DNA of 64,000 bases from an uncultured Pseudobdellovibrionaceae bacterium (GCA_964648725.1 CAZYOE010000001.1:7424-71423); one strand, 5' to 3'; shown: positions 11,781 through 61,969, counted from the stretch's first letter. The notes: a model not told the origin generated them from the letters alone. Numbers and translations: made by a program.

Positions 11781-12371
11781 ATGAAGTCTTTATTTAACTC
11801 TGTTCTAACTGTTTCTTTGGCGCTTTTTGCCTTTCAAGCAAAAGCTGAAGTTGTCTCAGCGGTAAAGGCAGCTGAATTGGCTTGCCATCGGGTTGATCGC
11901 TTGGTCGTTCTTAAAAAAATCGACAAAACTTATTTATCTAAATTTCAGAGATTAGTACTTACTGAACTAGCGGCTGGCCACCCATCAGGCGGAAAATTTT
12001 CAATAACCGCTTATCAAACCGCTCCAACTTCAGGAGTCGCTCTTAGCCTAACTATGGTACTCGACGAAACTGGAAAAGTTCTTAGTCACCAACTCAATGA
12101 AGGTGGTACTGCTGGACCCAATGTTGCTTGGTCAGGAAAAGACCCCGTCTCTCTAGCTGAAGCAGGCTTGCACTATGTTTTGGAAGAACAAGCGAAAAAT
12201 GAACAATTACGCCCGTTCGCTGGTGATTTTCAGTCACTGCTTTTGACTCAAAAAGTAGTTAATGGCTCCACCGTTGCTGAATTACTCATGAAATCAAGAA
12301 CCACTACTGCTAAATTAGTGTTAACTCTTGATCTCAATGGAAAATTACTCAACAGGCAAGTTATTCCGTAA
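11781..12371 (+). CDS. Secreted hypothetical protein
   Basis: 196 aa; signal peptide MKSLFNSVLTVSLALFAFQAKA; GGAG SD. Confidence 0.5.
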   Translation: MKSLFNSVLTVSLALFAFQAKAEVVSAVKAAELACHRVDRLVVLKKIDKTYLSKFQRLVLTELAAGHPSGGKFSITAYQTAPTSGVALSLTMVLDETGKVLSHQLNEGGTAGPNVAWSGKDPVSLAEAGLHYVLEEQAKNEQLRPFAGDFQSLLLTQKVVNGSTVAELLMKSRTTTAKLVLTLDLNGKLLNRQVIP

Positions 12372-22051: not shown

Positions 22052-23557
22052 TTACAAAGTATAGTCTTTTGCATTTATACCGTATTTTTCGATTTTCCTT
22101 AATAAAGTTTTTTTAGGAATATTTGCATGAAGTGCTGTCTGATTAATACGCCCACGAAATGCCTTTAAAGCCCTGATAATAAAGTCCTTTTCAAAAGCTT
22201 CCTTCTGCATATTAAAATCAAAGGTTGGATCAGAAACAGAGGCACCGGCTGGATGCTCAAAATCCTCCTCGGCATCATCACCCAAATCCATTTCCAAACC
22301 TAATTGTGCAGTCGGTGCTAATGCAAACGCCACTGGAGTTTCAGTATTGGCAAGAACCTCCTGCCAATCTTTAAGAGTGATCCCCACTGCCTGAAGTACA
22401 AACTCTGGTAAGGACGCTAGAGTAATCTGATCGGAATTCTCCATTACAAAGGCGTGTTCAATCACGTTTTCAAGTTCACGAATATTTCCCGGCCAATCAT
22501 AGCGAATCAAAACCTGCATCGATGCAGGATCAACACCAGTGACTTTTTTGCTATGAACTTGGTTGAACTTGCGAACAAACAAATTGATCATGGTGGGTAT
22601 ATCGTCTCTGCGCTCGCTCAACTGAGGGAGAAATATAGGAATAACATTTAAACGATAAAATAAATCCTCTCTAAACGTTCCTTGCTTAATCATGTCTTCG
22701 AGGGGTCTGTTTGTCGCAGCGATGATTCTCACGTTGGTTTGAATTTCCCGCAATGATCCCACGGGAGTAAAAACTTTTTCTTGTAAAACTCGGAGCAACT
22801 TGACTTGCATGTGCAAGGGCAAATCACCCACTTCATCTAAAAAGAGGGTTCCTCCCTCGGCAAATTGAAATTTGCCGATTTTGCGTTGATCGGCTCCAGT
22901 AAAAGACCCTTTTTCATGACCAAAAAATTCTGATTCAAATAAGTTTTCCGGAACGGCAGAGCAATTAACTGCTACAAATTTTTCATCTTTGCGAGCCGAA
23001 TTGAAGTGAATGGCTCTTGCCACCACCTCTTTACCTGTTCCTGAGGCTCCTCGAATCAAAACTGGAGTATCTACTTTAGATACGCGTTCGATAATACTGA
23101 ACACCTTCTGCATTTGTGCAGTATTCCCGATAATTTTACGACCTTGCTCCATTAAAACGGGTGCCGACACCGCAACATTAGAGATTAATCGATGGGCCTC
23201 AATAGCTTTTTCTAAAACTTGAATGAGGTCATCACCACTGACGGGCTTTGCCAAATAGTTATAGGCACCATCTTTGACTGCTTGCACAGCATTATCAATC
23301 GTTGCAAAAGCGGTCATAATTAAAACGATAGTCTCAGGGTTAAGGGCTTTAATTTGTTTGAGTGCTTCAAGACCTGAAAGGCGTGGCATATCGACATCAA
23401 GGATGACAACGTCGAAAGACTGCCTTTTTACTTTTTCCAAGGCATCAATGCCGTCAAAAGCTTCTTCAACTTCGTACTTTTGAGTGCTTAAAAGCACACC
23501 TTTTAAGGCAGTTCTTAGGCCTTGATCATCATCAACAACCAGCACTCTGAGCGCCAT
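22052..23557 (-). CDS. NtrC-family sigma-54-dependent response regulator (REC + AAA+ + HTH)
   Basis: ATG at 23557 behind a GGGAGGA SD (the ORF track starts at GTG 23575). REC VLVVDDD...ILDVDMPRLSG...KP. GASGTGKE, ESEFFGHEKGSFTGA. C-terminal HTH after a long acidic linker. Confidence 0.9.
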   Translation of the reverse strand: MALRVLVVDDDQGLRTALKGVLLSTQKYEVEEAFDGIDALEKVKRQSFDVVILDVDMPRLSGLEALKQIKALNPETIVLIMTAFATIDNAVQAVKDGAYNYLAKPVSGDDLIQVLEKAIEAHRLISNVAVSAPVLMEQGRKIIGNTAQMQKVFSIIERVSKVDTPVLIRGASGTGKEVVARAIHFNSARKDEKFVAVNCSAVPENLFESEFFGHEKGSFTGADQRKIGKFQFAEGGTLFLDEVGDLPLHMQVKLLRVLQEKVFTPVGSLREIQTNVRIIAATNRPLEDMIKQGTFREDLFYRLNVIPIFLPQLSERRDDIPTMINLFVRKFNQVHSKKVTGVDPASMQVLIRYDWPGNIRELENVIEHAFVMENSDQITLASLPEFVLQAVGITLKDWQEVLANTETPVAFALAPTAQLGLEMDLGDDAEEDFEHPAGASVSDPTFDFNMQKEAFEKDFIIRALKAFRGRINQTALHANIPKKTLLRKIEKYGINAKDYTL

Positions 23558-24330
23558 AGTTCCTCCCGGCCACACTTAACCTTGCCAATTTACGTCCCGT
23601 GCCAGTCATAACTCATTGTATTAAAATAACAAGTATAAAAATCTTTGAGGGCGCTCAAAAAAAATCTAATGACTTTTACTATTCATTAGTAATTTTAACA
23701 ATTTAAAGAGGCGGTTTTCACCCTCAATTGTGACGACTTTCCCAAGGAGCTGTCAATTCAGTTTGGAATGGCATTGCCCGTTGTTCCTTGCCGGGTCTCC
23801 GAAGGGTCTCCGAATTATAGAAGGTGACTCAATTTGTTAGGACCTAGGTCGAATATTGTTTTAGAAAGAAAAAAGTCCATCAAACAAGACCTTTCGCATA
23901 AGCTTTAATTACCAGAAAAAACTCGCGGAGGTACAAGGATGGACTTCTCTAATCTCATCACTATTGCTCTAGACGATTAGGAATTCCAAAGCGGAAAGTA
24001 TGGCTTTCCAGAGGCCCTCAAAAGCCGGTCACAAAGAGCTTTCGAGTGACTTGAATGGGGCGTTTTCAACAATTTGCTGCTAAACAAGGATTATGTTTCA
24101 GCGGACGGGCGTGAAAATGGACTATTCAAAATCCTCCAAAGATGCGGTTATTTAAACTCAAAATACATTGATACAACTGGATTGTTTTGGGGACCAAATA
24201 ACAAGTTGGCACAAAGTACCCCCTTCTAATAAACGGAGAGGGCTTGCTCTTTCTGATTTGCAGGGCCCTTTCGTCAAAGACTTCGACACTCCCCAGTAGC
24301 ATTAAACAGCTTTTGTTTGCCCCGCGACCC

Positions 24331-24346
24331 TGGCATGAATGTCGCA
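24331..24346 (+). promoter_or_regulatory. Sigma-54 (-24/-12) type promoter
   Basis: TGGCAT-gaatg-TCGCA: GG and GC are separated by exactly 10 nt (consensus TGGCAC-N5-TTGCA). Lies ~40 nt upstream of the SD/ATG at 24384. Confidence 0.55.
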
Positions 24347-24383
24347 TAAAGAAAACTACACGATGATGAAAGGGAGAAAACAA

Positions 24384-24860
24384 ATGAATTCCGCAAAATC
24401 CTATTGGATAGCTTCATTATTAACAGTTTGTCTTTTTGCAAGCGGTTGCGCTACAGATATCAGTTCAAATTCTTACTCTGACGCCCACGTAGGAGAGGCC
24501 GCCCGCAGCTACCGTGGAGTAGTGGTTAAAGTTCGTACCGTAAAAGTCGGACCAGATCAGCTAGAGAAAAGTAAAGCGGGAACGATGGTTGGTGGAGCTT
24601 CAGGTGCTGCGATCGGCAGTCAATTTGGATCTGGAACCGGAAAGTTAATTATGACCGGTGTCGGAGCCGTGGCTGGAGCTATCGGCGGAGCCTATGCAGA
24701 AAAATCGATGAAAAGTCAAAATGCCTTAGAAATCACAATTGAACTGAAAAATGGCGATATGCGAACAGTTGTTCAAGGAGCTGATGTTAATTTCTCAACA
24801 GGCGAAGCCATAATGCTTATGACTTATAAAAAAGGCAGATCAAAAATCGTTAAACTTTAA
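24384..24860 (+). CDS. Glycine-zipper outer-membrane lipoprotein (SlyB / 17-kDa antigen-like)
   Basis: ATG at 24384 behind an AAGGGAG SD (the ORF track ATG at 24339 lies inside the promoter). Lipobox LFASGC. Gly-zipper GGASGAAIGSQFGSGTGK...GVGAVAGAIGGAYA. Confidence 0.75.
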   Translation: MNSAKSYWIASLLTVCLFASGCATDISSNSYSDAHVGEAARSYRGVVVKVRTVKVGPDQLEKSKAGTMVGGASGAAIGSQFGSGTGKLIMTGVGAVAGAIGGAYAEKSMKSQNALEITIELKNGDMRTVVQGADVNFSTGEAIMLMTYKKGRSKIVKL

Positions 24861-24917: not shown

Positions 24918-26783
24918 TTAGTTGGTTAATGGGAGCTCAATCGTAAAGGTTGAGCCCTTGTTTTCCTCACTTGATGCTGTCAACGTTCCGTTGTGCAACT
25001 CAACAAAGTACCTCGATAAGTATAAGCCCAAGCCTGATCCCTTAACCTCTGAATTCTTAGCCTTTCTGCTTCTGAAAAATTTCATAAATAAACGCGGCAA
25101 CTCATCGTCTGGAATTCCAATTCCTTGATCCTTCACCTGAATAAAAACCTTATTATCTTTTTCTTCTGTTTTCACCGTGATCTGCGCTTCCGTCGGACTG
25201 TACTTGATAGCATTTTCCACGAGATTTAAAATTACTTGGCGAATCAAATCAGGATCGATTTTCATGCTGAACAGAGGTTCAAGCTCTTTAATAACTTTTA
25301 TCTTTTTCTCTTTCGCTAAATAGTCTGTTTTCTGCAGAACCTCTTCAATTAAAGTATTCACGTCTTTGCTCTTCAAATTGAGTTGCACGCCTTCCGTTTC
25401 CAAACGGCTAAAGTTAAGAATCGAACTAATAAAATTCAGCAAATCCTCTGTGGAGCTCTGAATCGATTTAACCGCCTGCCGTTGGTCATCACTCAGTGCG
25501 TTTTTATCGCGAAGAACAATTTCAATCATCCCTTGAATTCTGGCCAAGGGTGTTTTCAGATCATGCGACATCATTCCAATGAAGTTGTTTTTGAGTTCTT
25601 CAACCTGTGTAAGCAATTTATTTTTTTGATAAAGCTCCCAACTTCGCCGATTTTCCATAATGAGGCGATAGGGAATCAAAAAATAATAGGCCACAAAAAC
25701 CCCAAGCAATGGATGAGCCATATTAATCCAATACCCAAATGGCCAAAATGCGATGAAGGAACTGGTTGCAAAAACTAATAGTGTGATCCCTAGAACGGTC
25801 ATTCCTTTGATCGGCTTCATCGCCAAAACAACTTCAAGTGACAAAATTACCAAGAGCATTACGATCAAAAAATTGATCCAGCGAGGTATCGCTTTTACCC
25901 CTGAGTTACGAATGAGTGAGTTTAACATATTAGCATGGGCCTCAACAGCAGTCATCGCTGTAACCTGCCGCGAATATGGAGTTTTAATATACTCATGAGT
26001 GCTTTGCCCAAGATCCGTTCCCACAAAAATAATCTTGTTGTTGAATCGGCCTTTGGTAAATTTGGAGCCCACTATGTCAATAAAACTTGTTTTAGGAAAA
26101 GTGCCGGCAGGAGCCATGTCTATATAGGCCTGCTCGCTATCATAAAAATCAAAACGACCTCGTATATTATGGGGCAAGGCACGCTCAGGAATAACTTGGC
26201 TAGCTAAATACGGATGGAACAAAATATTGCCTTGATACGTTAGCATCATTCGTCTGGTCACACCATCCTGAGCTAAAATCTTCGAATCCGAAGTAATCGG
26301 ACCCGACAAAACACGAATTTCCCTGAGTGGGCCAGGCAAATCAAACTTACCAACCTCACCGCGCATCGCAAGCTCATCGGTGACAAAATAAAATCCCGGC
26401 AACGAGAGGGCAAGTTCGGCAAAAACTTTGCGTTCAGAATCTTTACCGACTAGATCTTTTGGGTTAAGCAGGTAAACGACCACTTTGGGGTTTTCATTTT
26501 TCAATTGAGTTAAAAACCGAATATGTTGTTGAAGAGTGGGTATGCCTGGAGCGGTCTGAACTGTAACAGGATCTATAATAACTGTCTCGATCAGCTTACT
26601 CGCCAAAGGAGCAGGCCTAATCATAGTCCGTAAGTCATAAAGATAAGATTCAAAGTAATCAAGAGGCAGTAAGAGAACAACGACCGAAATAATTGCCGCC
26701 AAAATCCATCGTAATAGCCTAAAGGAAGTTCTTTTATTCAGTTTTTTAATAAGTAGATTCGCACTTCCTTGCGACTTTCGCAC
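24918..26783 (-). CDS. CHASE2-domain sensor histidine kinase
   Basis: 621 aa. N-terminal TM, ~270-aa extracytoplasmic domain, three clustered TMs, H box MSHDLKTPL, N/G boxes (NLVENAIKYS, DQGIGI, GSGLGL). Confidence 0.85.
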   Translation of the reverse strand: MRKSQGSANLLIKKLNKRTSFRLLRWILAAIISVVVLLLPLDYFESYLYDLRTMIRPAPLASKLIETVIIDPVTVQTAPGIPTLQQHIRFLTQLKNENPKVVVYLLNPKDLVGKDSERKVFAELALSLPGFYFVTDELAMRGEVGKFDLPGPLREIRVLSGPITSDSKILAQDGVTRRMMLTYQGNILFHPYLASQVIPERALPHNIRGRFDFYDSEQAYIDMAPAGTFPKTSFIDIVGSKFTKGRFNNKIIFVGTDLGQSTHEYIKTPYSRQVTAMTAVEAHANMLNSLIRNSGVKAIPRWINFLIVMLLVILSLEVVLAMKPIKGMTVLGITLLVFATSSFIAFWPFGYWINMAHPLLGVFVAYYFLIPYRLIMENRRSWELYQKNKLLTQVEELKNNFIGMMSHDLKTPLARIQGMIEIVLRDKNALSDDQRQAVKSIQSSTEDLLNFISSILNFSRLETEGVQLNLKSKDVNTLIEEVLQKTDYLAKEKKIKVIKELEPLFSMKIDPDLIRQVILNLVENAIKYSPTEAQITVKTEEKDNKVFIQVKDQGIGIPDDELPRLFMKFFRSRKAKNSEVKGSGLGLYLSRYFVELHNGTLTASSEENKGSTFTIELPLTN

Positions 26784-26824: not shown

Positions 26825-26983
26825 TTAGTCCCGATCAATAATATTTCCTGTGGGGACACATCCATGACCTTCTGTCATAAGAATAGAGCTTTTAACTCCC
26901 TTGGATTTTTTGTCCTTAATCTTGCTTTCGAAACTGTTTTTAGACTCAATTGATTTCGGCTTACATAGCTTAATGTGTTTCAT
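26825..26983 (-). CDS. 52-aa Lys-rich small peptide; candidate precursor peptide for the upstream radical SAM enzyme
   Basis: AGGAGG-N7-ATG (ATG at 26983), 14 nt before the rSAM stop codon. Sequence: MKHIKLCKPKSIESKNSFESKIKDKKSKGVKSSILMTEGHGCVPTGNIIDRD. The ORF-track start at 27007 has no SD. Confidence 0.55.
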   Translation of the reverse strand: MKHIKLCKPKSIESKNSFESKIKDKKSKGVKSSILMTEGHGCVPTGNIIDRD

Positions 26984-28262
26984 CGGAAGACCTCCTATAT
27001 TTTTCATAATACATCAGTGAAGTAAGGATCAAGCTTTGGGTTCGATCACAGAAAATTGGATCAACCTTTAAGCTGCTCCCTGAACTTTTTTTGTGGGTAT
27101 AATTACATCCACCACCACAAAGATATTTAGCCCAGCATGTTCGGCAGAGATTTTTTTCATTTTGGGGAGCTCGATATTCTGCTAACTTTTCAACTTGAAT
27201 CTCGTTACCTGAATTAAGTTTTAAAGTTTTTTCATTTATATCCCAAGGGCATGCATAAAGATCCCCTTTTGCGTCCATTGAAAGCAAAGACTTACCGGAG
27301 CCACAAAAGTTCTCCAAGCGCAGCTGTTCATCAAGACGCTGAAATAGCCCGTCAAAGATTCTGATCTTGCGAAGCTCATCCTCCCCGCCAATTTTATCGG
27401 CGTACTCAGCAACGGCATGCATCCCTCGACTAAAGTCCTGACTCGCATGTGCATCAAAATCGGTGTGAGAATAGTTTAATTCGTAGAAGTCAAAGTCCCA
27501 CTTGAGGAAGTATTTATAGGCATCTACCACTGCCACGTGGTCTTTGTGGAAAACCGCCGCCAATCCTACGCTCGGTAGACGGTTCTTAATTTCACGAATA
27601 CAATGAAGACCCTTTTCCAATTCAACGCTTGAACCCTGCCCGCCTTTTTGAGGACGAAAATGATCTTGAACTTCGGGCGGACCATCTACACTGACCGTTA
27701 CCGCCATTCGATATTCCAAAAGTAGCTGGAGGACATTATTATCAGACAATCGGGTTCCATTAGTGACTACCGCAAACCGCAAGGCCACTTCCGCTTTTTC
27801 TGCAAATTCTTTGGCTCGCTCAGCTATTACTCTGATGATCTCAGGGTACAATAAAGGCTCACCCCCTAAGAAATTGATCTGAAATCTCTCACCGGGAAGG
27901 CATCTTGACACTAACCACCCTAGTTGTGGCAAAGCCATATTAAGATCAATTTTTACAATTGGAGCCCCATATGAGCCATCCCCACCTGCTGCGCAATAAG
28001 CACACCTTAAATTACAAAGCTGCGTTGAATTTATGGTAAGTGTCTTAACTTTTTGCTCATTAGATGATTTCCGCACACTTGTATTTATTGAATCAGACCA
28101 AGCCTTTAACTCAGAAAGTTCCTCACCTGGCTCACCTTTTTTTAAGGCTCCCCATAACTCTTCACTCAACTGAGCTACTTCAAGGTTTTCATTATGAAAA
28201 CCCATAATTTCTCCTGAAGAAAGTTTAAAGATGCTTATTTTTTCAAACTGTACTGGTGTCAT
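26970..28262 (-). CDS. Radical SAM / SPASM-domain enzyme (peptide-maturase-like, anSME superfamily)
   Basis: 430 aa. CNLRCAYC at residues 83-90, GGEPLLYP. SPASM cysteines CGSGK...GDLYACPW, CRTCWAKYLCGGGC, ...IFC. ~75-aa N-terminal extension before the SAM cluster. Confidence 0.85.
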   Translation of the reverse strand: MTPVQFEKISIFKLSSGEIMGFHNENLEVAQLSEELWGALKKGEPGEELSELKAWSDSINTSVRKSSNEQKVKTLTINSTQLCNLRCAYCAAGGDGSYGAPIVKIDLNMALPQLGWLVSRCLPGERFQINFLGGEPLLYPEIIRVIAERAKEFAEKAEVALRFAVVTNGTRLSDNNVLQLLLEYRMAVTVSVDGPPEVQDHFRPQKGGQGSSVELEKGLHCIREIKNRLPSVGLAAVFHKDHVAVVDAYKYFLKWDFDFYELNYSHTDFDAHASQDFSRGMHAVAEYADKIGGEDELRKIRIFDGLFQRLDEQLRLENFCGSGKSLLSMDAKGDLYACPWDINEKTLKLNSGNEIQVEKLAEYRAPQNEKNLCRTCWAKYLCGGGCNYTHKKSSGSSLKVDPIFCDRTQSLILTSLMYYEKYRRSSDETH

Positions 28263-28315
28263 TTCGGCTTCCCATGGTCCAAAACAGGACTAACCTCAAG
28301 GACTACTGCAAATTA

Positions 28316-28331
28316 AATGCCTCGTCTTTGG
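28316..28331 (-). promoter_or_regulatory. Candidate sigma-54 (-24/-12) promoter of the rSAM operon
   Basis: The minus strand reads AGGCAT-ttaat-TTGCA. GG-N10-GC spacing is exact and the -12 TTGCA is perfect. ~45 nt upstream of the rSAM ATG (28262). Confidence 0.45.
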
Positions 28332-28369: not shown

Positions 28370-29368
28370 GTGGTGGATTCTATATCTATGAGCTTAAGAA
28401 TTGATTTTTGGGGAGTCAGAGGATCACTTCCTTTTGCACTAAGCCCCGTGGATTTAGCTAATGATTTTCGCGCCTACATGGTTCGCTTCTTTGAGCAAGG
28501 CTATGTGGGCACGCAGGATATTGATCGCTATCTTCAGACAATCGGCACAGCTACCCTTGGTGGTTATGGGACAGCAACAACATGTGTGCAGGCGACTTCA
28601 GATAACGAATCCATAATTATTGATGCAGGAACCGGGCTCAAACTACTTGGGGATCGATTATTAGAGGGGCCAGCAGGCCAAGGTGATGCAAGTATTCATC
28701 TTTTTCTGAGTCACTTTCATTGGGACCATTTGATCGGACTTCCTTACTTTGCTCCAGCTTTCATTGAAGGAAATGAAATTAATATTTATGCAGTTCAAAA
28801 TAATGTTGAACAACTTATTAGAGATTATCTTAGGCACCCATTGGTAGAACGAGACCTCGACTCTTGGGGAAGCCGAGTCAACTTTCATGTGCTGCCACCG
28901 AGATCTGCCTTAACTCTAGGTGATATGTCGGTGACTCCCTATATGATGGATCATCCGGACTCCTGTTGGGGTTTTAGGATTTCCAGCGGTGGAAAAAATT
29001 ACGCCCACTGTGCGGATACTGAAGCGACAAGAGTGACTCATCATAGTTTAGGCGAAGATTTACCCATGTATCAAAACGTTGATTTGATGTATTTTGATGC
29101 CCAATATACATTGGGTGAATTGGCAGACAGAATAAACTGGGGCCATAGCGCGGCTCAAATCGGACTAGATTTAGCCTTCAAAGAAAAAATTAAACACGTT
29201 TTATTTTCTCATCACGACCCAATCTCAACATCCAGTACAATCAACATGTTGGTCCGACAAACTGAAGAGTATTACCGTTGGAAACTCGAACAAGCCGGGA
29301 AGCAAAACATTATTTTACCTCCCGTGGAATGGAGCTTTGTCTACGAAGGACAAAGCGTCTATCTTTAA
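28370..29368 (+). CDS. MBL-fold metallo-hydrolase
   Basis: 332 aa. HFHWDH (HxHxDH) motif, later ...GHS and HHD. Possible ATG start at 28388. Divergent from the rSAM operon. Confidence 0.8.
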   Translation: MVDSISMSLRIDFWGVRGSLPFALSPVDLANDFRAYMVRFFEQGYVGTQDIDRYLQTIGTATLGGYGTATTCVQATSDNESIIIDAGTGLKLLGDRLLEGPAGQGDASIHLFLSHFHWDHLIGLPYFAPAFIEGNEINIYAVQNNVEQLIRDYLRHPLVERDLDSWGSRVNFHVLPPRSALTLGDMSVTPYMMDHPDSCWGFRISSGGKNYAHCADTEATRVTHHSLGEDLPMYQNVDLMYFDAQYTLGELADRINWGHSAAQIGLDLAFKEKIKHVLFSHHDPISTSSTINMLVRQTEEYYRWKLEQAGKQNIILPPVEWSFVYEGQSVYL

Positions 29369-29757
29369 TTGACTTTAGTTTTAATTTTATAAGTTCCTTC
29401 AGAGTGACACATTTGGCCTTCTGAACCCTGCTGAGAGCATTCAACTTTACCGCAATCAATAGCAATCACTTTACTATCTTGGTTCATTTCTTTGATTTCT
29501 TTTTTCCATTGATTACAAGCCTGCTTCCAACTAGCTCTTGCTTCTTTTACTAGTACATTTGGTTCTCCTTCAACCTGTCCTGTTCCATCAACGATCTCAT
29601 ATAGTTTTTCACACTTAGTGGCAGTAGCCCCTTTTTTAATTGATATCGTTGTATCTTCACTCATTGGAATTTCTGTGACCGACGTTTTTTGCGCCCAACC
29701 ACTGCACACTGCAAATACAACGACTGTTGCCGTAAAAATTGATTTTAACCAAAACAT
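29365..29757 (-). CDS. Small secreted Cys-containing protein
   Basis: ATG at 29757 behind a GGAGG SD. Signal peptide MFWLKSIFTATVVVFAVCSGWA. Five further Cys residues in the mature part (after the signal peptide). Confidence 0.5.
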   Translation of the reverse strand: MFWLKSIFTATVVVFAVCSGWAQKTSVTEIPMSEDTTISIKKGATATKCEKLYEIVDGTGQVEGEPNVLVKEARASWKQACNQWKKEIKEMNQDSKVIAIDCGKVECSQQGSEGQMCHSEGTYKIKTKVN

Positions 29758-29779
29758 TATTACCTCCAAATTATTTATA

Positions 29780-32095
29780 CTATTTCTTAAACACCAAATT
29801 AATTTCGTCCGGTTCGTGATCTGCCTTCACAGACCAAAACCCTTTTGCCTTTAAATCATAGATAGGAATTGTCCTTATATTTACTTCATCCGTCCACGGA
29901 AAATCTCTGACTTGATCAAATTTTGTGGCCTCCTGCATGAATGATAACCATGCAGGTAGTGATCCACTGGCTCCAGTCAGACCACTCGGGGTATTGTCAT
30001 CATAACCCGTCCAAACAATCGATAACAAATCCGGCGTAAACCCGACAAACCAGGAATCGTGGTAATCATTTGTCGTTCCCGTTTTGCCAGCGACGATTTT
30101 ATCATATCCCGACGAACTTATTTTTTTTGCCGTTCCAGAGATAACTGTTTGCTTCAACATTCCAATCAACATCTGGGTTGCCACTGAAGATATTTTATTT
30201 TCTTCCATTCTGGAGTTCGCAGACCAAACCGGCTTTCCCTCTGGATCTTCAACATAATCTAAAAATGTTAGCTCCAAATAATTTCCGAAACGGGCAATCG
30301 TCATATAAGCTTGCAGGAGTTCCAATGGGTTTAACTCAAAGGCCCCAAGACTGAGCGACGGAACTGGCTTCAACTCAGAACGAATGCCAAGAACCCGCGC
30401 CGTATCTATGATTGAATCTAAGCCTATATTAAGTGCCAACTGCGCGGTCGCTAAGTTGAGGCTTTCTTTGAGTGCAAAATACATAGGAACTGTTCCATAA
30501 AAAGTATGGTCATAATTTTCAGGGGACCACTTTTGTCGCCCGTATTTATGGGTGAATGGTTCATCCCTTAGTTCATAAATAGGATTTATTTCTTCATTAT
30601 CCGATGCCAACGCCGTCAGAAAGACGACCGGCTTGAAAGTTGACCCCACCTGGCGTTTAGAAGTCAGAATTCGATTAAATTGAGTCTTTTTAAATGAACG
30701 TCCACCCACCAGAGCTCGAATCCCCCCCGTGGCAATGTCGACCGAAACTAGCGCACTTTCGAGATTTATGTTTTTCTTAGCTTTAACCTTTTTGACGACG
30801 GGATGCTGACTTTCAATTTCGTTCAGACTTTTAACAATGGATGTTTGAGCGGCTTCCTGCAACCGCAAATCCATCGTTGTAAATAGCTTGTACCCCCCCA
30901 ACTCCTCGATTCCTAACTTACTAACCTGCTCCACGGCGGCCTGTAAAAAATAAGGCAAGGTGGAGTAGAGGTCTGCGTTTTCATTTTTAGGAAGTGCTTC
31001 TTCCTCCGCTCGTGTTTTTTCTTCCGAGCTTATAAACTTTTGTTCCTCCATTTTTTGAAGTACAAGCGATCTTCGCGTTTTTGCCTTCGCTGGGTTAGTA
31101 AATGGATTATATTGCCCTGGACTATTTACTATGGCTGCCAATAAGCTGCATTGAGCTAAGGATAAATCAGAGACCGATTTTTGAAAGTAAAAGCGGGAAG
31201 CCGCCCCATAACCCCGAACTTGATAAGGTCCCTGCTGGCCCATATAAATAATATTTAGATAGGTCTCCAGGATTAGATCCTTGTCGAAGTGGCTCTCAAT
31301 CAGCAATGCCATGATAAACTCAAGCGCCTTTCGCTTGAGTGTTTTTTCAGGAGTGAGGAAATAATTTTTAATCAGTTGTTGCGTTAGTGTACTGCCCCCT
31401 TGGGCCTTTCTTCCTTTGAGAAGATTAACGACAACCGCTCTCAGAATACCCAGAGGACTGACTCCTTTGTGCTCCAAAAACTTAGCGTCTTCGATAGCAA
31501 TAATGGCATTTAAGCAAGCCACTGGAAAATCGGGCAAGGTGTGTTCATCACGCAAAATAGGCTCACCTCCAAGATATTGTGCAATAACCTGAGGCAAAAC
31601 CACAAATTGATCAGAGGCCTCTGAGGGTTCACCTTTAAATATTCCCTTAATATGCAATGAAGCATCTAGCCAGAGCGTTTCAACCCATGGCTCCTTAAAC
31701 AAAGGGTGTGCCCCTTTGTCCCAAAAAACCCGTAAACACAAATCAGTTTCAGCAATTTCATTTCCGGTGACTAAGAAGCTAATGCAGCTGGGCCCTTGGT
31801 AAATGGAAAAATCTCCAGCAAACAACCGTTGTTCCCCAGACCGCATCCGGAGCTGTTTATTAAGAACGTCTTTTATCTCATCAAGAGGAAATAAATCTCC
31901 AGTTTTCCAAGTCGCCGCCCGAGAGTAAAAAATAGTAGGTTGAATCATTTGCTTCTGCTGCATTTTAGAAAGCATTTCTTGATCAACCTTATAAACAAAA
32001 ACGCTACCAGCTATGATGGTTAGCGTCACTAGACCCAAAAAGCCCATAGCAAAAAGAATGAGAAAACCTTCTTTATTTTTTAGGTTCTTTAGCAT
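29780..32095 (-). CDS. Class A penicillin-binding protein (transglycosylase + transpeptidase, PBP1A-type)
   Basis: 771 aa. GT51 motifs EDAKFLEHKGVS, GGSTLTQQL, RKALE. TPase motifs STFKP, SLN, KTGTT. Confidence 0.9.
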   Translation of the reverse strand: MLKNLKNKEGFLILFAMGFLGLVTLTIIAGSVFVYKVDQEMLSKMQQKQMIQPTIFYSRAATWKTGDLFPLDEIKDVLNKQLRMRSGEQRLFAGDFSIYQGPSCISFLVTGNEIAETDLCLRVFWDKGAHPLFKEPWVETLWLDASLHIKGIFKGEPSEASDQFVVLPQVIAQYLGGEPILRDEHTLPDFPVACLNAIIAIEDAKFLEHKGVSPLGILRAVVVNLLKGRKAQGGSTLTQQLIKNYFLTPEKTLKRKALEFIMALLIESHFDKDLILETYLNIIYMGQQGPYQVRGYGAASRFYFQKSVSDLSLAQCSLLAAIVNSPGQYNPFTNPAKAKTRRSLVLQKMEEQKFISSEEKTRAEEEALPKNENADLYSTLPYFLQAAVEQVSKLGIEELGGYKLFTTMDLRLQEAAQTSIVKSLNEIESQHPVVKKVKAKKNINLESALVSVDIATGGIRALVGGRSFKKTQFNRILTSKRQVGSTFKPVVFLTALASDNEEINPIYELRDEPFTHKYGRQKWSPENYDHTFYGTVPMYFALKESLNLATAQLALNIGLDSIIDTARVLGIRSELKPVPSLSLGAFELNPLELLQAYMTIARFGNYLELTFLDYVEDPEGKPVWSANSRMEENKISSVATQMLIGMLKQTVISGTAKKISSSGYDKIVAGKTGTTNDYHDSWFVGFTPDLLSIVWTGYDDNTPSGLTGASGSLPAWLSFMQEATKFDQVRDFPWTDEVNIRTIPIYDLKAKGFWSVKADHEPDEINLVFKK

Positions 32096-61685: not shown

Positions 61686-61969
61686 GAGTAAATCTCCCCC
61701 GGAATCTTGTCCTTTGACTAAAAAGTTAGTCGTCCCTAGGGGGATTTGCAATGAAGATGCCATAAACTTTAGAGCCGTTTTGACTCACGCCGATAAGCAA
61801 ATTTTATTGCTAACAAAATTTTTTTAACTGGCCAACACCATATTAGTTACAAATACATTTAAATTTCGAATCACTTTGACTTCCCCCCGAACGAAAAAAT
61901 CGCCTCTATTTGTTTCTTCCAATCTTATTGCCCCAACATCTTTAGGATATAAACCTTTGGGCAAAATTC

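Follow-up and report, generated by a model that had tools for sequence, protein, structure and literature searches.

Does a gene for a radical S-adenosylmethionine (SAM) enzyme of the SPASM type, the 3' end of which runs into a short open reading frame (ORF), form with it the maturase-precursor pair of a ribosomally produced, post-translationally modified peptide (RiPP), and if so, what is done to the peptide and to what end? The question is raised by a 64,000-nucleotide (nt) stretch of DNA from an uncultured Pseudobdellovibrionaceae bacterium (GCA_964648725.1 CAZYOE010000001.1:7424-71423; here denoted the window, meaning the whole stretch, in which positions are counted from its first letter). 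An earlier inspection of the DNA without database searches (the sequence-only reading) had proposed a candidate RiPP locus on its minus strand. Our computational analysis of the locus and its relatives demonstrates that the gene pair is real, conserved and under selection, and we are highly confident that it is a true precursor-maturase pair. The pair probably belongs to a RiPP cassette conserved across the Bdellovibrionota, in which docking of a leader, binding of a Cys to auxiliary cluster 1 (AC1) of the enzyme, formation of a thioether and sigma-54 feedback would be combined. The elements of the pair are the following (lengths of products in amino acids, aa):

26970..28262, minus strand: radical SAM/SPASM peptide maturase gene, 430 aa, of an unnamed subfamily with CteB-like architecture
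26825..26983, minus strand: gene for the precursor peptide (52 aa, then a stop codon), MKHIKLCKPKSIESKNSFESKIKDKKSKGVKSSILMTEGHGCVPTGNIIDRD, with its ATG at 26983 and a stop codon that ends at 26825
26991..26996, minus strand: Shine-Dalgarno sequence AGGAGG, 7 nt before the peptide ATG, within the 3' end of the enzyme gene
26957..26980, minus strand: leader motif K-H-I-K-L-C-K-P (family consensus K-H-I-K-K-[IV]-K-P)
26849..26863, minus strand: core G41-C42-V43-P44-T45, the presumed modification site, which holds the invariant Cys and Pro

The enzyme ORF, with CNLRCAYC at residues 83-90, is read directly from the sequence. Likewise, the Shine-Dalgarno arrangement AGGAGG-N7-ATG at 26983, the 52-aa ORF and its 14-nt overlap with the end of the enzyme gene are as the sequence-only reading had given them. 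An alternative 60-aa version of the small ORF, from ATG 27007, appears in the ORF listing; the 52-aa start is favoured because the relatives start at or near M-K-H-I-K-K. In Bdellovibrio bacteriovorus (locus L002) the peptide ORF begins 9 nt past the enzyme stop codon, whereas in the window the two genes overlap. The window peptide is hydrophilic, with a net charge of +6, and neither a signal peptide nor a membrane segment was found in it. A regular-expression scan of all six frames of the window detected no second copy of the precursor.

Relatives of the enzyme were gathered by protein search, by look-ups of the encoding contigs, by one genome scan and by one metagenome scan. The protein search with the enzyme gave 946 matches at E<=1e-10, the named ones being Bdellovibrio, Pseudobdellovibrionaceae or Oligoflexia, and the genome scan, which used the enzyme as sole query, returned one close locus. 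We compared the window with 20 distinct related loci that have sequence 3' of the orthologous enzyme gene. In 21/21 loci, at enzyme identities of 34-65%, the ORF directly 3' of the enzyme gene encodes a homologue of the peptide, and a small ORF with both motifs is found in the window and 19 of the related loci, the remaining one (L013) having a variant core. The sequence-only reading had made its proposal depend on conservation of the small ORF beside orthologous enzymes; it is conserved at every locus examined, down to 34% identity and including B. bacteriovorus. The B. bacteriovorus peptide is MTKKTHIKKVKPLKPALPTPGIKGGPGTGNGEGCIPVR, that of the 65%-identity relative L001 is MKHIKLCKPKNLKTDSKANAAEQNKQPARNARVSTLASQGLGCVPTEMVIIDRD, and that of an Oligoflexia metagenome-assembled genome (MAG) reads, in part, ...GKQHIQKVTPVKTTVVSDPGGCRPTGT. 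B. bacteriovorus Tiberius shows the same arrangement, its peptide being Bdt_3279.

A profile built from 18 of the peptides matched 146 proteins at E<=10, and the best 120 of the 146 (29-85 aa) were analysed. All of these 120 are unnamed or 'hypothetical', Bdt_3279 of Tiberius among them. The family comprises at least 120 distinct peptides, in which two motifs are joined by a linker of variable length and low complexity, rich in K, S, T, G and P. As to the leader motif, 100% of the 120 peptides have its Ile, 97% have K at +1, 94% K at +2 and 95% P or A at +5. For the core the motif reads G-x-[GA]-C-[ILV]-P-[VITS]-[GRD], with the Cys and the Pro at +2 present in 120/120, G or A at -1, I, L or V at +1, V, I, T or S at +3 (~85%) and G, R or D at +4; half of the peptides, and the window peptide with them, have Gly at this last position. 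Aromatic residues make up ~1% of the family peptides. When the motif regions of the window and of three relatives are compared by codon, 28 differences are synonymous and 5 non-synonymous; the small ORF is a protein-coding gene under purifying selection. When 18 family peptides were compared with NCBIfam and Pfam there were zero matches at E<=1, in agreement with the earlier view that the peptide stands outside the named precursor families. An adjacent short ORF, a recognition motif and a core residue that fits the chemistry, which define a RiPP precursor-maturase pair, are all present, and we infer that the N-terminal motif serves as leader and the C-terminal motif as core.

Three further observations concern the peptide genes. 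First, in the window clade only (P0122, P0124, P0139, P0150, P0177, P0196) the leader is HIK[LIM]-C-K-P, not HIKK-[IV]-K-P; this adds a second Cys, also within C-x-P, that might be modified too or be coincidental. Second, at L013 (3314..4724) an enzyme of 40% identity is followed by a peptide with HIKKVTP and the core S-A-C-P-S-M-I-T-L, in which zero residues separate Cys and Pro, and a 186-aa pilin-like ORF lies downstream of the peptide. Third, annotation of the peptide gene is inconsistent. It is uncalled in B. bacteriovorus CP168967 (L002 6281..6434), supplanted in GCA_041178425.1 (L003 6243..6428) by a 61-aa ORF called on the other strand, and annotated as 'hypothetical protein' in Tiberius (Bdt_3279) and in the Oligoflexia MAG. 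Gene callers often miss it.

What kind of enzyme accompanies the peptide is apparent from three of its regions:

27993..28016, minus strand: CX3CX2C radical SAM cluster motif, C83, C87 and C90, invariant in 87 homologues
27048..27305, minus strand: SPASM region, C320, C338, C373, C376, C382, C386 and C405, all seven invariant in 87 homologues
28047..28262, minus strand: N-terminal domain, ~residues 1-72, candidate leader-binding domain resembling a RiPP recognition element (RRE), from structure model and conservation

The Cys residues of the second region are arranged as C320-x12-G-x4-C338; C373-x2-C376-x5-C382-x3-C386; C405. The full SPASM pattern claimed for the enzyme is thereby upheld, all seven Cys being present and invariant in the homologues. 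The Pfam matches of the window enzyme are Radical_SAM (PF04055, 46.2 bits vs a cut-off of 29.5) and Fer4_12 only; the SPASM assignment rests on the motif, on full-length NCBIfam alignments and on the fold. Scored against NCBIfam (bits/cut-off), the enzyme reaches 167/519 with nif11-rSAM (TIGR04064), 159/340 with PapB (NF047865), 118/453 with QhpD (TIGR03906), 115/425 with SCIFF (TIGR03974), 98/500 with CcpM (TIGR04068) and 68.6/349 with anSME (TIGR03942). The first five models, which are peptide maturases and include several known thioether-formers, all outscore anSME. Further NCBIfam matches are the cyclophane formers YhhB and FxsB, DynA and DarW. The B. bacteriovorus and Oligoflexia enzymes are likewise under every NCBIfam cut-off, and the enzyme family is left unnamed because all tested members fall under every one of them. 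A check suggested by the sequence-only reading, that the enzyme should not fall in a characterised family acting on a protein encoded elsewhere, did not refute the proposal (anSME 69/349, QhpD 118/453, all other NCBIfam models under cut-off), nor did the other two checks of that reading that could be computed.

Structure comparison places the enzyme close to CteB. The nearest PDB entry by sequence is CteB, the thioether synthase of the SCIFF system, with an E of 1e-26, and anSME comes next at 3e-8. An AlphaFold (AF2) model built on the 87 homologues has a mean predicted local distance difference test score (pLDDT) of 90 and a predicted template modelling score (pTM) of 0.89. Its best Foldseek match is again CteB (5WHY/5WGG), with a template modelling score (TM) of 0.79-0.81 over ~450 columns, the N-terminal domain included; anSME follows at TM 0.66, then ChlB and TigE. 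The spacing of the SPASM Cys residues (18; 3, 6, 4; 19) equals that of CteB C344, C362, C400, C403, C409, C413 and C432. In CteB, PapB and Tte1186, AC1 has three Cys ligands and auxiliary cluster 2 (AC2) has four, the substrate Cys, as selenocysteine (SeCys), touches AC1, and Tte1186 offers a precedent for a single Cys cross-link (PMC10177961). Because the Cys spacing is identical to that of CteB, the window enzyme is predicted to have a three-Cys AC1, with a site open for the substrate Cys, and a four-Cys AC2.

The N-terminal domain is the second feature shared with CteB. An extension of ~75 aa had been noted before the SAM cluster, and the anSME alignment indeed begins at query residue 80 (anSME residue 12). 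Residues 4-57 of the enzyme model form four short strands and two helices, and a third helix when the domain is folded alone. Among the enzyme homologues F22, H23, N26, L27, E28, A30, L52 and W55 are invariant or nearly so, and conservation in the domain is highest at L52, W55 and the stretch G-F-H-x-x-N-L-E-V-A, which lies on strands 3 and 4. The best Foldseek matches of the isolated domain are the RREs of TbiB1 with leader peptide (5V1U) and of the lasso B1 protein 6JX3, and the N-terminus of CteB. On this modelling, an RRE-like role for the domain is plausible and would fit the conserved HIKK motif of the peptides.

To which known system does the pair belong? In CteB/CteA and Tte1186/Tte1186a, the SCIFF ranthipeptide systems, the enzymes are built alike from an N-terminal domain, a radical SAM barrel and a SPASM domain. 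With CteB, its best match in sequence and fold, the window enzyme shares the seven-Cys SPASM spacing and the three-Cys AC1; with CteB/CteA the locus shares a precursor gene adjacent to the enzyme gene, and Tte1186 makes a single Cys cross-link, of the kind proposed here. However, the window enzyme is only 18-19% identical to CteB in the structural alignment, its SCIFF score is 115 vs the cut-off of 425, and its N-terminal domain is ~25 residues shorter. SCIFF precursors have six Cys, whereas the window precursor is unrelated to them, with one core Cys, a Lys-rich HIKK leader and no match to the SCIFF model; SCIFF hosts are Clostridia, whereas the cassette occurs in aerobic predatory Bdellovibrionota and is tied to a two-component system. 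PapB, of the freyrasin system PapB/PapA, is the top or second NCBIfam match for three family enzymes, over nearly the full model, at 159-178 bits. It has the same reported auxiliary-cluster scheme and forms thioethers from Cys, yet the family enzymes stay under its cut-off of 340, and PapA carries the C-x3-D repeat six times, its acceptors being Asp beta-carbons, where the present peptides have a single Cys and lack a conserved acidic acceptor. QhpD of QhpD/QhpC is also a thioether-forming SPASM enzyme and a significant match (118 bits), but under its cut-off of 453; it acts on a dehydrogenase subunit in which Cys is linked to Asp/Glu. No qhp genes occur in the neighbourhood, the neighbours being a kinase, a regulator, a metallo-beta-lactamase (MBL)-fold protein and a penicillin-binding protein (PBP), and the window enzyme is not a QhpD. 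Judged by its sequence features, the cassette would work like a ranthipeptide or sactipeptide system of the CteB/PapB type while standing outside every named subfamily. It forms a new family in a class already known.

The pair does not stand alone. Downstream of it are a sensor kinase gene and a regulator gene, and upstream of it a promoter-like element:

24918..26783, minus strand: CHASE2-domain sensor histidine kinase (Pfam CHASE2, HisKA, HATPase_c)
22052..23575, minus strand: NtrC-family sigma-54-dependent response regulator (NCBIfam AtoC, NtrC and ZraR-like matches)
28307..28322, minus strand: sigma-54-type -24/-12 element AGGCATTTAATTTGCA, 45 nt upstream of the enzyme ATG

Synteny of the pair with kinase and regulator is evident from the related loci. 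The kinase start codon is 41 nt past the peptide stop, and no terminator-like site was found between 26783 and 26825. By tblastn, the genes of enzyme, peptide and CHASE2 kinase stand in this order at 17 of the 18 related loci whose downstream sequence suffices, and they do so in the Tiberius genome as well; the sigma-54 regulator directly follows the kinase in 11 related loci, and in Tiberius the two genes overlap by 8 nt. Orthologues of the regulator carry the Pfam domains Response_reg, Sigma54_activat and HTH_8. In the kinase, hydrophobic segments at ~residues 22-46 and 295-350 lie on either side of the CHASE2 domain, which is therefore probably periplasmic.

In the window a glycine-zipper (Rick_17kDa_Anti/YMGG-like) lipoprotein gene (24339..24860, plus strand) is inserted between kinase and regulator, which are adjacent or overlapping at all other loci. 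Sigma-70-like sites are present upstream of the window regulator at 23756..23727 and 23721..23692 (minus strand). Since a plus-strand gene separates it from the kinase, the window regulator probably has a promoter of its own.

The element upstream of the window enzyme has GG-N10-GC spacing and matches 9/11 positions of TGGCAC-N5-TTGCA. With equivalent elements counted at a score of >=8 of 11, ~18/24 loci have one 30-165 nt upstream of the enzyme gene, vs ~2 by chance (the background frequency of -24/-12 elements being 0.057 per 200 nt). Those of L002 (B. bacteriovorus), L003 and L005 (Oligoflexia) score 10 of 11, and in an alignment of the window, L003 and L006 the element is the best-conserved upstream block. 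On the minus strand upstream of the enzyme gene, nothing resembling a sigma-70 site was found. The presumed activator of the element at 28307..28322 is the regulator encoded at 22052..23575. The element is present, and from its sequence we infer that it has promoter activity and depends on the cassette regulator; control of the operon by sigma-54 and the two-component system seems fairly likely.

A departure from this layout was seen at L001 (3880..3960), where an insertion of ~30 nt with repeated CCAAAG lies between GCGAG and the GCAT...TTTGCA block, so that the -24/-12 spacing is no longer canonical. This may reflect a true change in the promoter or an error in assembly of the MAG.

These elements can be assembled into a scheme. 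The 52-aa product of 26825..26983 would be the precursor peptide. Its N-terminal K-H-I-K-K-[IV]-K-P would act as leader and be docked by the small beta/alpha domain at the N-terminus of the enzyme, and G-x-[GA]-C-[ILV]-P near its C-terminus would be the core. The invariant Cys thiolate would bind the open iron site of AC1 in the CteB-like enzyme, and the 5'-deoxyadenosyl radical would take a hydrogen atom from a nearby residue, most likely the one at +3, on the far side of the invariant Pro. Closure of a single small thioether ring, of sactionine or ranthionine type, would follow. A link from Cys(i) to (i+3) is our best guess because +3 is V, I, T or S in ~85% of the peptides and the Pro would enforce a turn. 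The genes of enzyme, peptide and CHASE2 kinase, plus that of the regulator in most genomes, would be co-transcribed from the sigma-54 promoter, which the cassette's own NtrC-type regulator would switch on; production would therefore be under two-component control, probably with positive feedback. As to the chemistry, we give even chances to a thioether at the invariant Cys, with a putative acceptor residue. It is favoured over formylglycine because the three-Cys AC1 scheme matches that of CteB, PapB and Tte1186.

Several observations weigh against this scheme. For the enzyme, the Pfam SPASM model is not reported at E<=0.01 and the window enzyme has no Pfam PqqD match. As for the RRE fold that the sequence-only reading had proposed to look for in the N-terminal extension, the full-length model can be overlaid on CteB, N-terminal domain included, but such a fold does not stand out in the domain alone (E ~0.09, TM ~0.46); all matches of the isolated domain to RREs are non-significant (E 0.09-1, TM 0.41-0.48). 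For the peptide, none of the possible side-chain acceptors (Asp, Glu, Thr or Asn) is conserved near the core Cys in the 120 peptides, so that the cross-link partner is a guess, and the Thr, Asn and Asp residues once put forward as thioether acceptors in the window peptide are unconserved across the family. Furthermore, 38/120 peptides end in C-x-P-x-[RK], the motif of formylglycine-generating enzymes (sulfatase motif). For the cassette, no leader protease or exporter was seen in the neighbourhoods examined, the pair is present at L013 without kinase or regulator, and a canonical -24/-12 element is absent upstream of the enzyme in L001 and in the L017/L018/L020 group. Finally, the sampled loci seem all to be of one phylum, and part of the synteny could for that reason be inherited gene order.

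Is a thioether the right product? The peptide may be the substrate of some other radical reaction (a C-C or C-O cross-link, epimerisation, desaturation, or modification of the backbone or of Pro), with the Cys serving to anchor the cluster. SPASM maturases of similar fold catalyse many reactions, as the NCBIfam matches to YhhB, FxsB, DynA and DarW illustrate, the enzyme is outside every named family, and the cluster-bound Cys of the CteB crystal is not the cross-linking one (PMC10177961). Against this, the ~1% of aromatic residues excludes links of the cyclophane, streptide and darobactin types, Cys and Pro are the only invariant core residues, and the nearest characterised relatives are all thioether-formers; we consider such a reaction unlikely.

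The main rival to a thioether is chemistry like that of anSME, in which the invariant Cys of C-x-P-x-(R/G/D) would be oxidised to C-alpha-formylglycine, giving an aldehyde-bearing peptide. anSME (PDB 4K36-4K39) is a SPASM enzyme acting on the Cys of C-x-P-x-R, and the motif is partly shared, C-x-P being invariant in the present family. The sequence-only reading had remarked that the core lacks the Arg of this target; that is correct for the window peptide and does not extend to the family, given the C-x-P-x-[RK] endings in 38/120. The want of a conserved cross-link acceptor also speaks for oxidation, as does anSME being both the second structural match (TM 0.66) and a significant sequence match. 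However, at 69/349 bits anSME ranks under some ten models of thioether or cross-link maturases, and the window enzyme is not an anSME (TIGR03942) by that score. anSME is without the N-terminal domain, and it has an extra Cys in the AC1 segment, where the window enzyme has one fewer: its auxiliary clusters are said, from work by Goldman et al. in 2013, to be fully Cys-ligated, whereas the window enzyme shows the three-Cys AC1 scheme. At +4, half of the peptides carry Gly. The substrates of anSME are large sulfatases, whereas here an adjacent peptide of 30-60 aa is at hand, and no sulfatase was seen in the conserved neighbourhood. Together these points make formylglycine improbable.

That the small ORF is instead a conserved small protein or a regulatory leader of the kinase operon, the enzyme modifying the kinase or a protein encoded elsewhere, is very unlikely: small proteins do modulate some sensor kinases, this one could act on the kinase because its gene always lies directly upstream of the kinase gene, the cassette is without protease or exporter and the RRE matches are non-significant, but the peptide is hydrophilic and without a membrane segment, has the classic layout of a RiPP precursor (recognition motif, variable linker, short Cys core), is kept beside the enzyme at L013 where kinase and regulator are missing, and accompanies an enzyme most closely related to maturases dedicated to peptides that are encoded next to them.

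If the peptide is modified in the cassette, what might it do there? It could be a signal, secreted or delivered to the periplasm and sensed by the CHASE2 domain, from which the kinase would act on the regulator and the regulator would reactivate the operon; this we regard as doubtful. The agrBDCA and comQXPA systems each consist of a modifying enzyme, a short precursor, a membrane histidine kinase and a response regulator. The gene order is the same here, and there would likewise be an upstream promoter that the cassette regulator could activate. The enzymes, in contrast, are unrelated (AgrB is a protease and ComQ a prenyltransferase), as are the kinase types; the regulator is here a sigma-54 activator, the hosts are Gram-negative, and secretion and sensing of the peptide are conjectural. 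By analogy, then, the cassette resembles the agr and com systems and is not placed as a member of them.

Among bacterial predators B. bacteriovorus serves as the model, and it is a candidate 'living antibiotic'. For this species and its relatives the locus reveals a peptide gene that is often missed or mis-called; it is paired with a radical enzyme of its own and linked to a sensor kinase and a sigma-54 activator. A literature search, thin on subscription journals, found nothing on this Bdellovibrio peptide-enzyme family, the hits consulted touching on Bdellovibrio or Bdellovibrionota only briefly; in those parts of the literature that were accessible, no report of a CHASE2 ligand was found. 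The conserved pair, with kinase and regulator after it, suggests a modified-peptide system that is undescribed and possibly a signal, although generic genome-mining pipelines may already label such loci 'ranthipeptide'. For the RiPP field, the peptides are a new precursor family, with HIKK in the leader and G-C-[ILV]-P as the sole core, for which NCBIfam and Pfam have no model, and the enzymes a maturase subfamily placed between CteB/PapB and anSME. Since the core motif overlaps the formylglycine motif, the family could provide a clean system for comparing thioether formation with Cys oxidation in SPASM enzymes. Interest is raised by the conservation across the sampled Bdellovibrionota-type lineages, by the bridging core motif and by the constant coupling to kinase and regulator. 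Should the peptide prove to be the kinase input, it would represent peptide cell-cell signalling in a Gram-negative predator and provide a ligand for, and a handle on, CHASE2; the cassette would then be an autoinducing loop in the style of agr and com, built on radical SAM chemistry and conserved across predatory Bdellovibrionota. Should the peptide not be a signal, the predators would still possess a modified peptide, conserved and under regulation, with some role in their physiology that lends itself to genetic tests.

Other genes surround the cassette in the window. An MBL-fold (Lactamase_B_2) gene at 28370..29368 (plus strand) is divergent from the enzyme gene, and the 107-nt intergenic region shared by the two holds the sigma-54 element. 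The gene is the immediate divergent neighbour in L001, L006, L010, L017, L018, L020 and L021 and ~2 kb off in others. The analogy to pqqA/B/E had prompted the idea of a PqqB-like role for it; we rejected this role, as NCBIfam relates it, weakly, to phosphodiesterases and RNase Z and it is detached in several loci. Beyond it are genes for a 134-aa protein without a family match (29365..29769, minus strand), syntenic in several relatives including L001 and L003, and for a class A PBP with Transgly and Transpeptidase domains (29780..32095, minus strand), syntenic in L001, L003, L005, L009, L012, L013, L017, L018 and L020. Both probably owe their place to inherited gene order and do not belong to the cassette.

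The metagenome loci L024-L085 were excluded from the family evidence, as they belong to other SPASM families at 27-32% identity. They are further unnamed maturase families: of two sampled enzymes one scores 311 bits to QhpD (cut-off 453) and one 339 to SCIFF (cut-off 425), and the soil/sediment SPASM enzymes at L028 3680..5101 and L043 3713..5143 are examples that stay under all NCBIfam cut-offs. As regards sigma-54-type sequences elsewhere in the window, three other 16-mers score 10 on a modified sigma-54 score, namely TGGCATCTTCATTGCA at 61762 (minus strand), TGGCTCCACCGTTGCT at 12263 (plus strand) and TGGCTCATCCATTGCT at 25720 (minus strand), the last of which falls within the kinase coding region.

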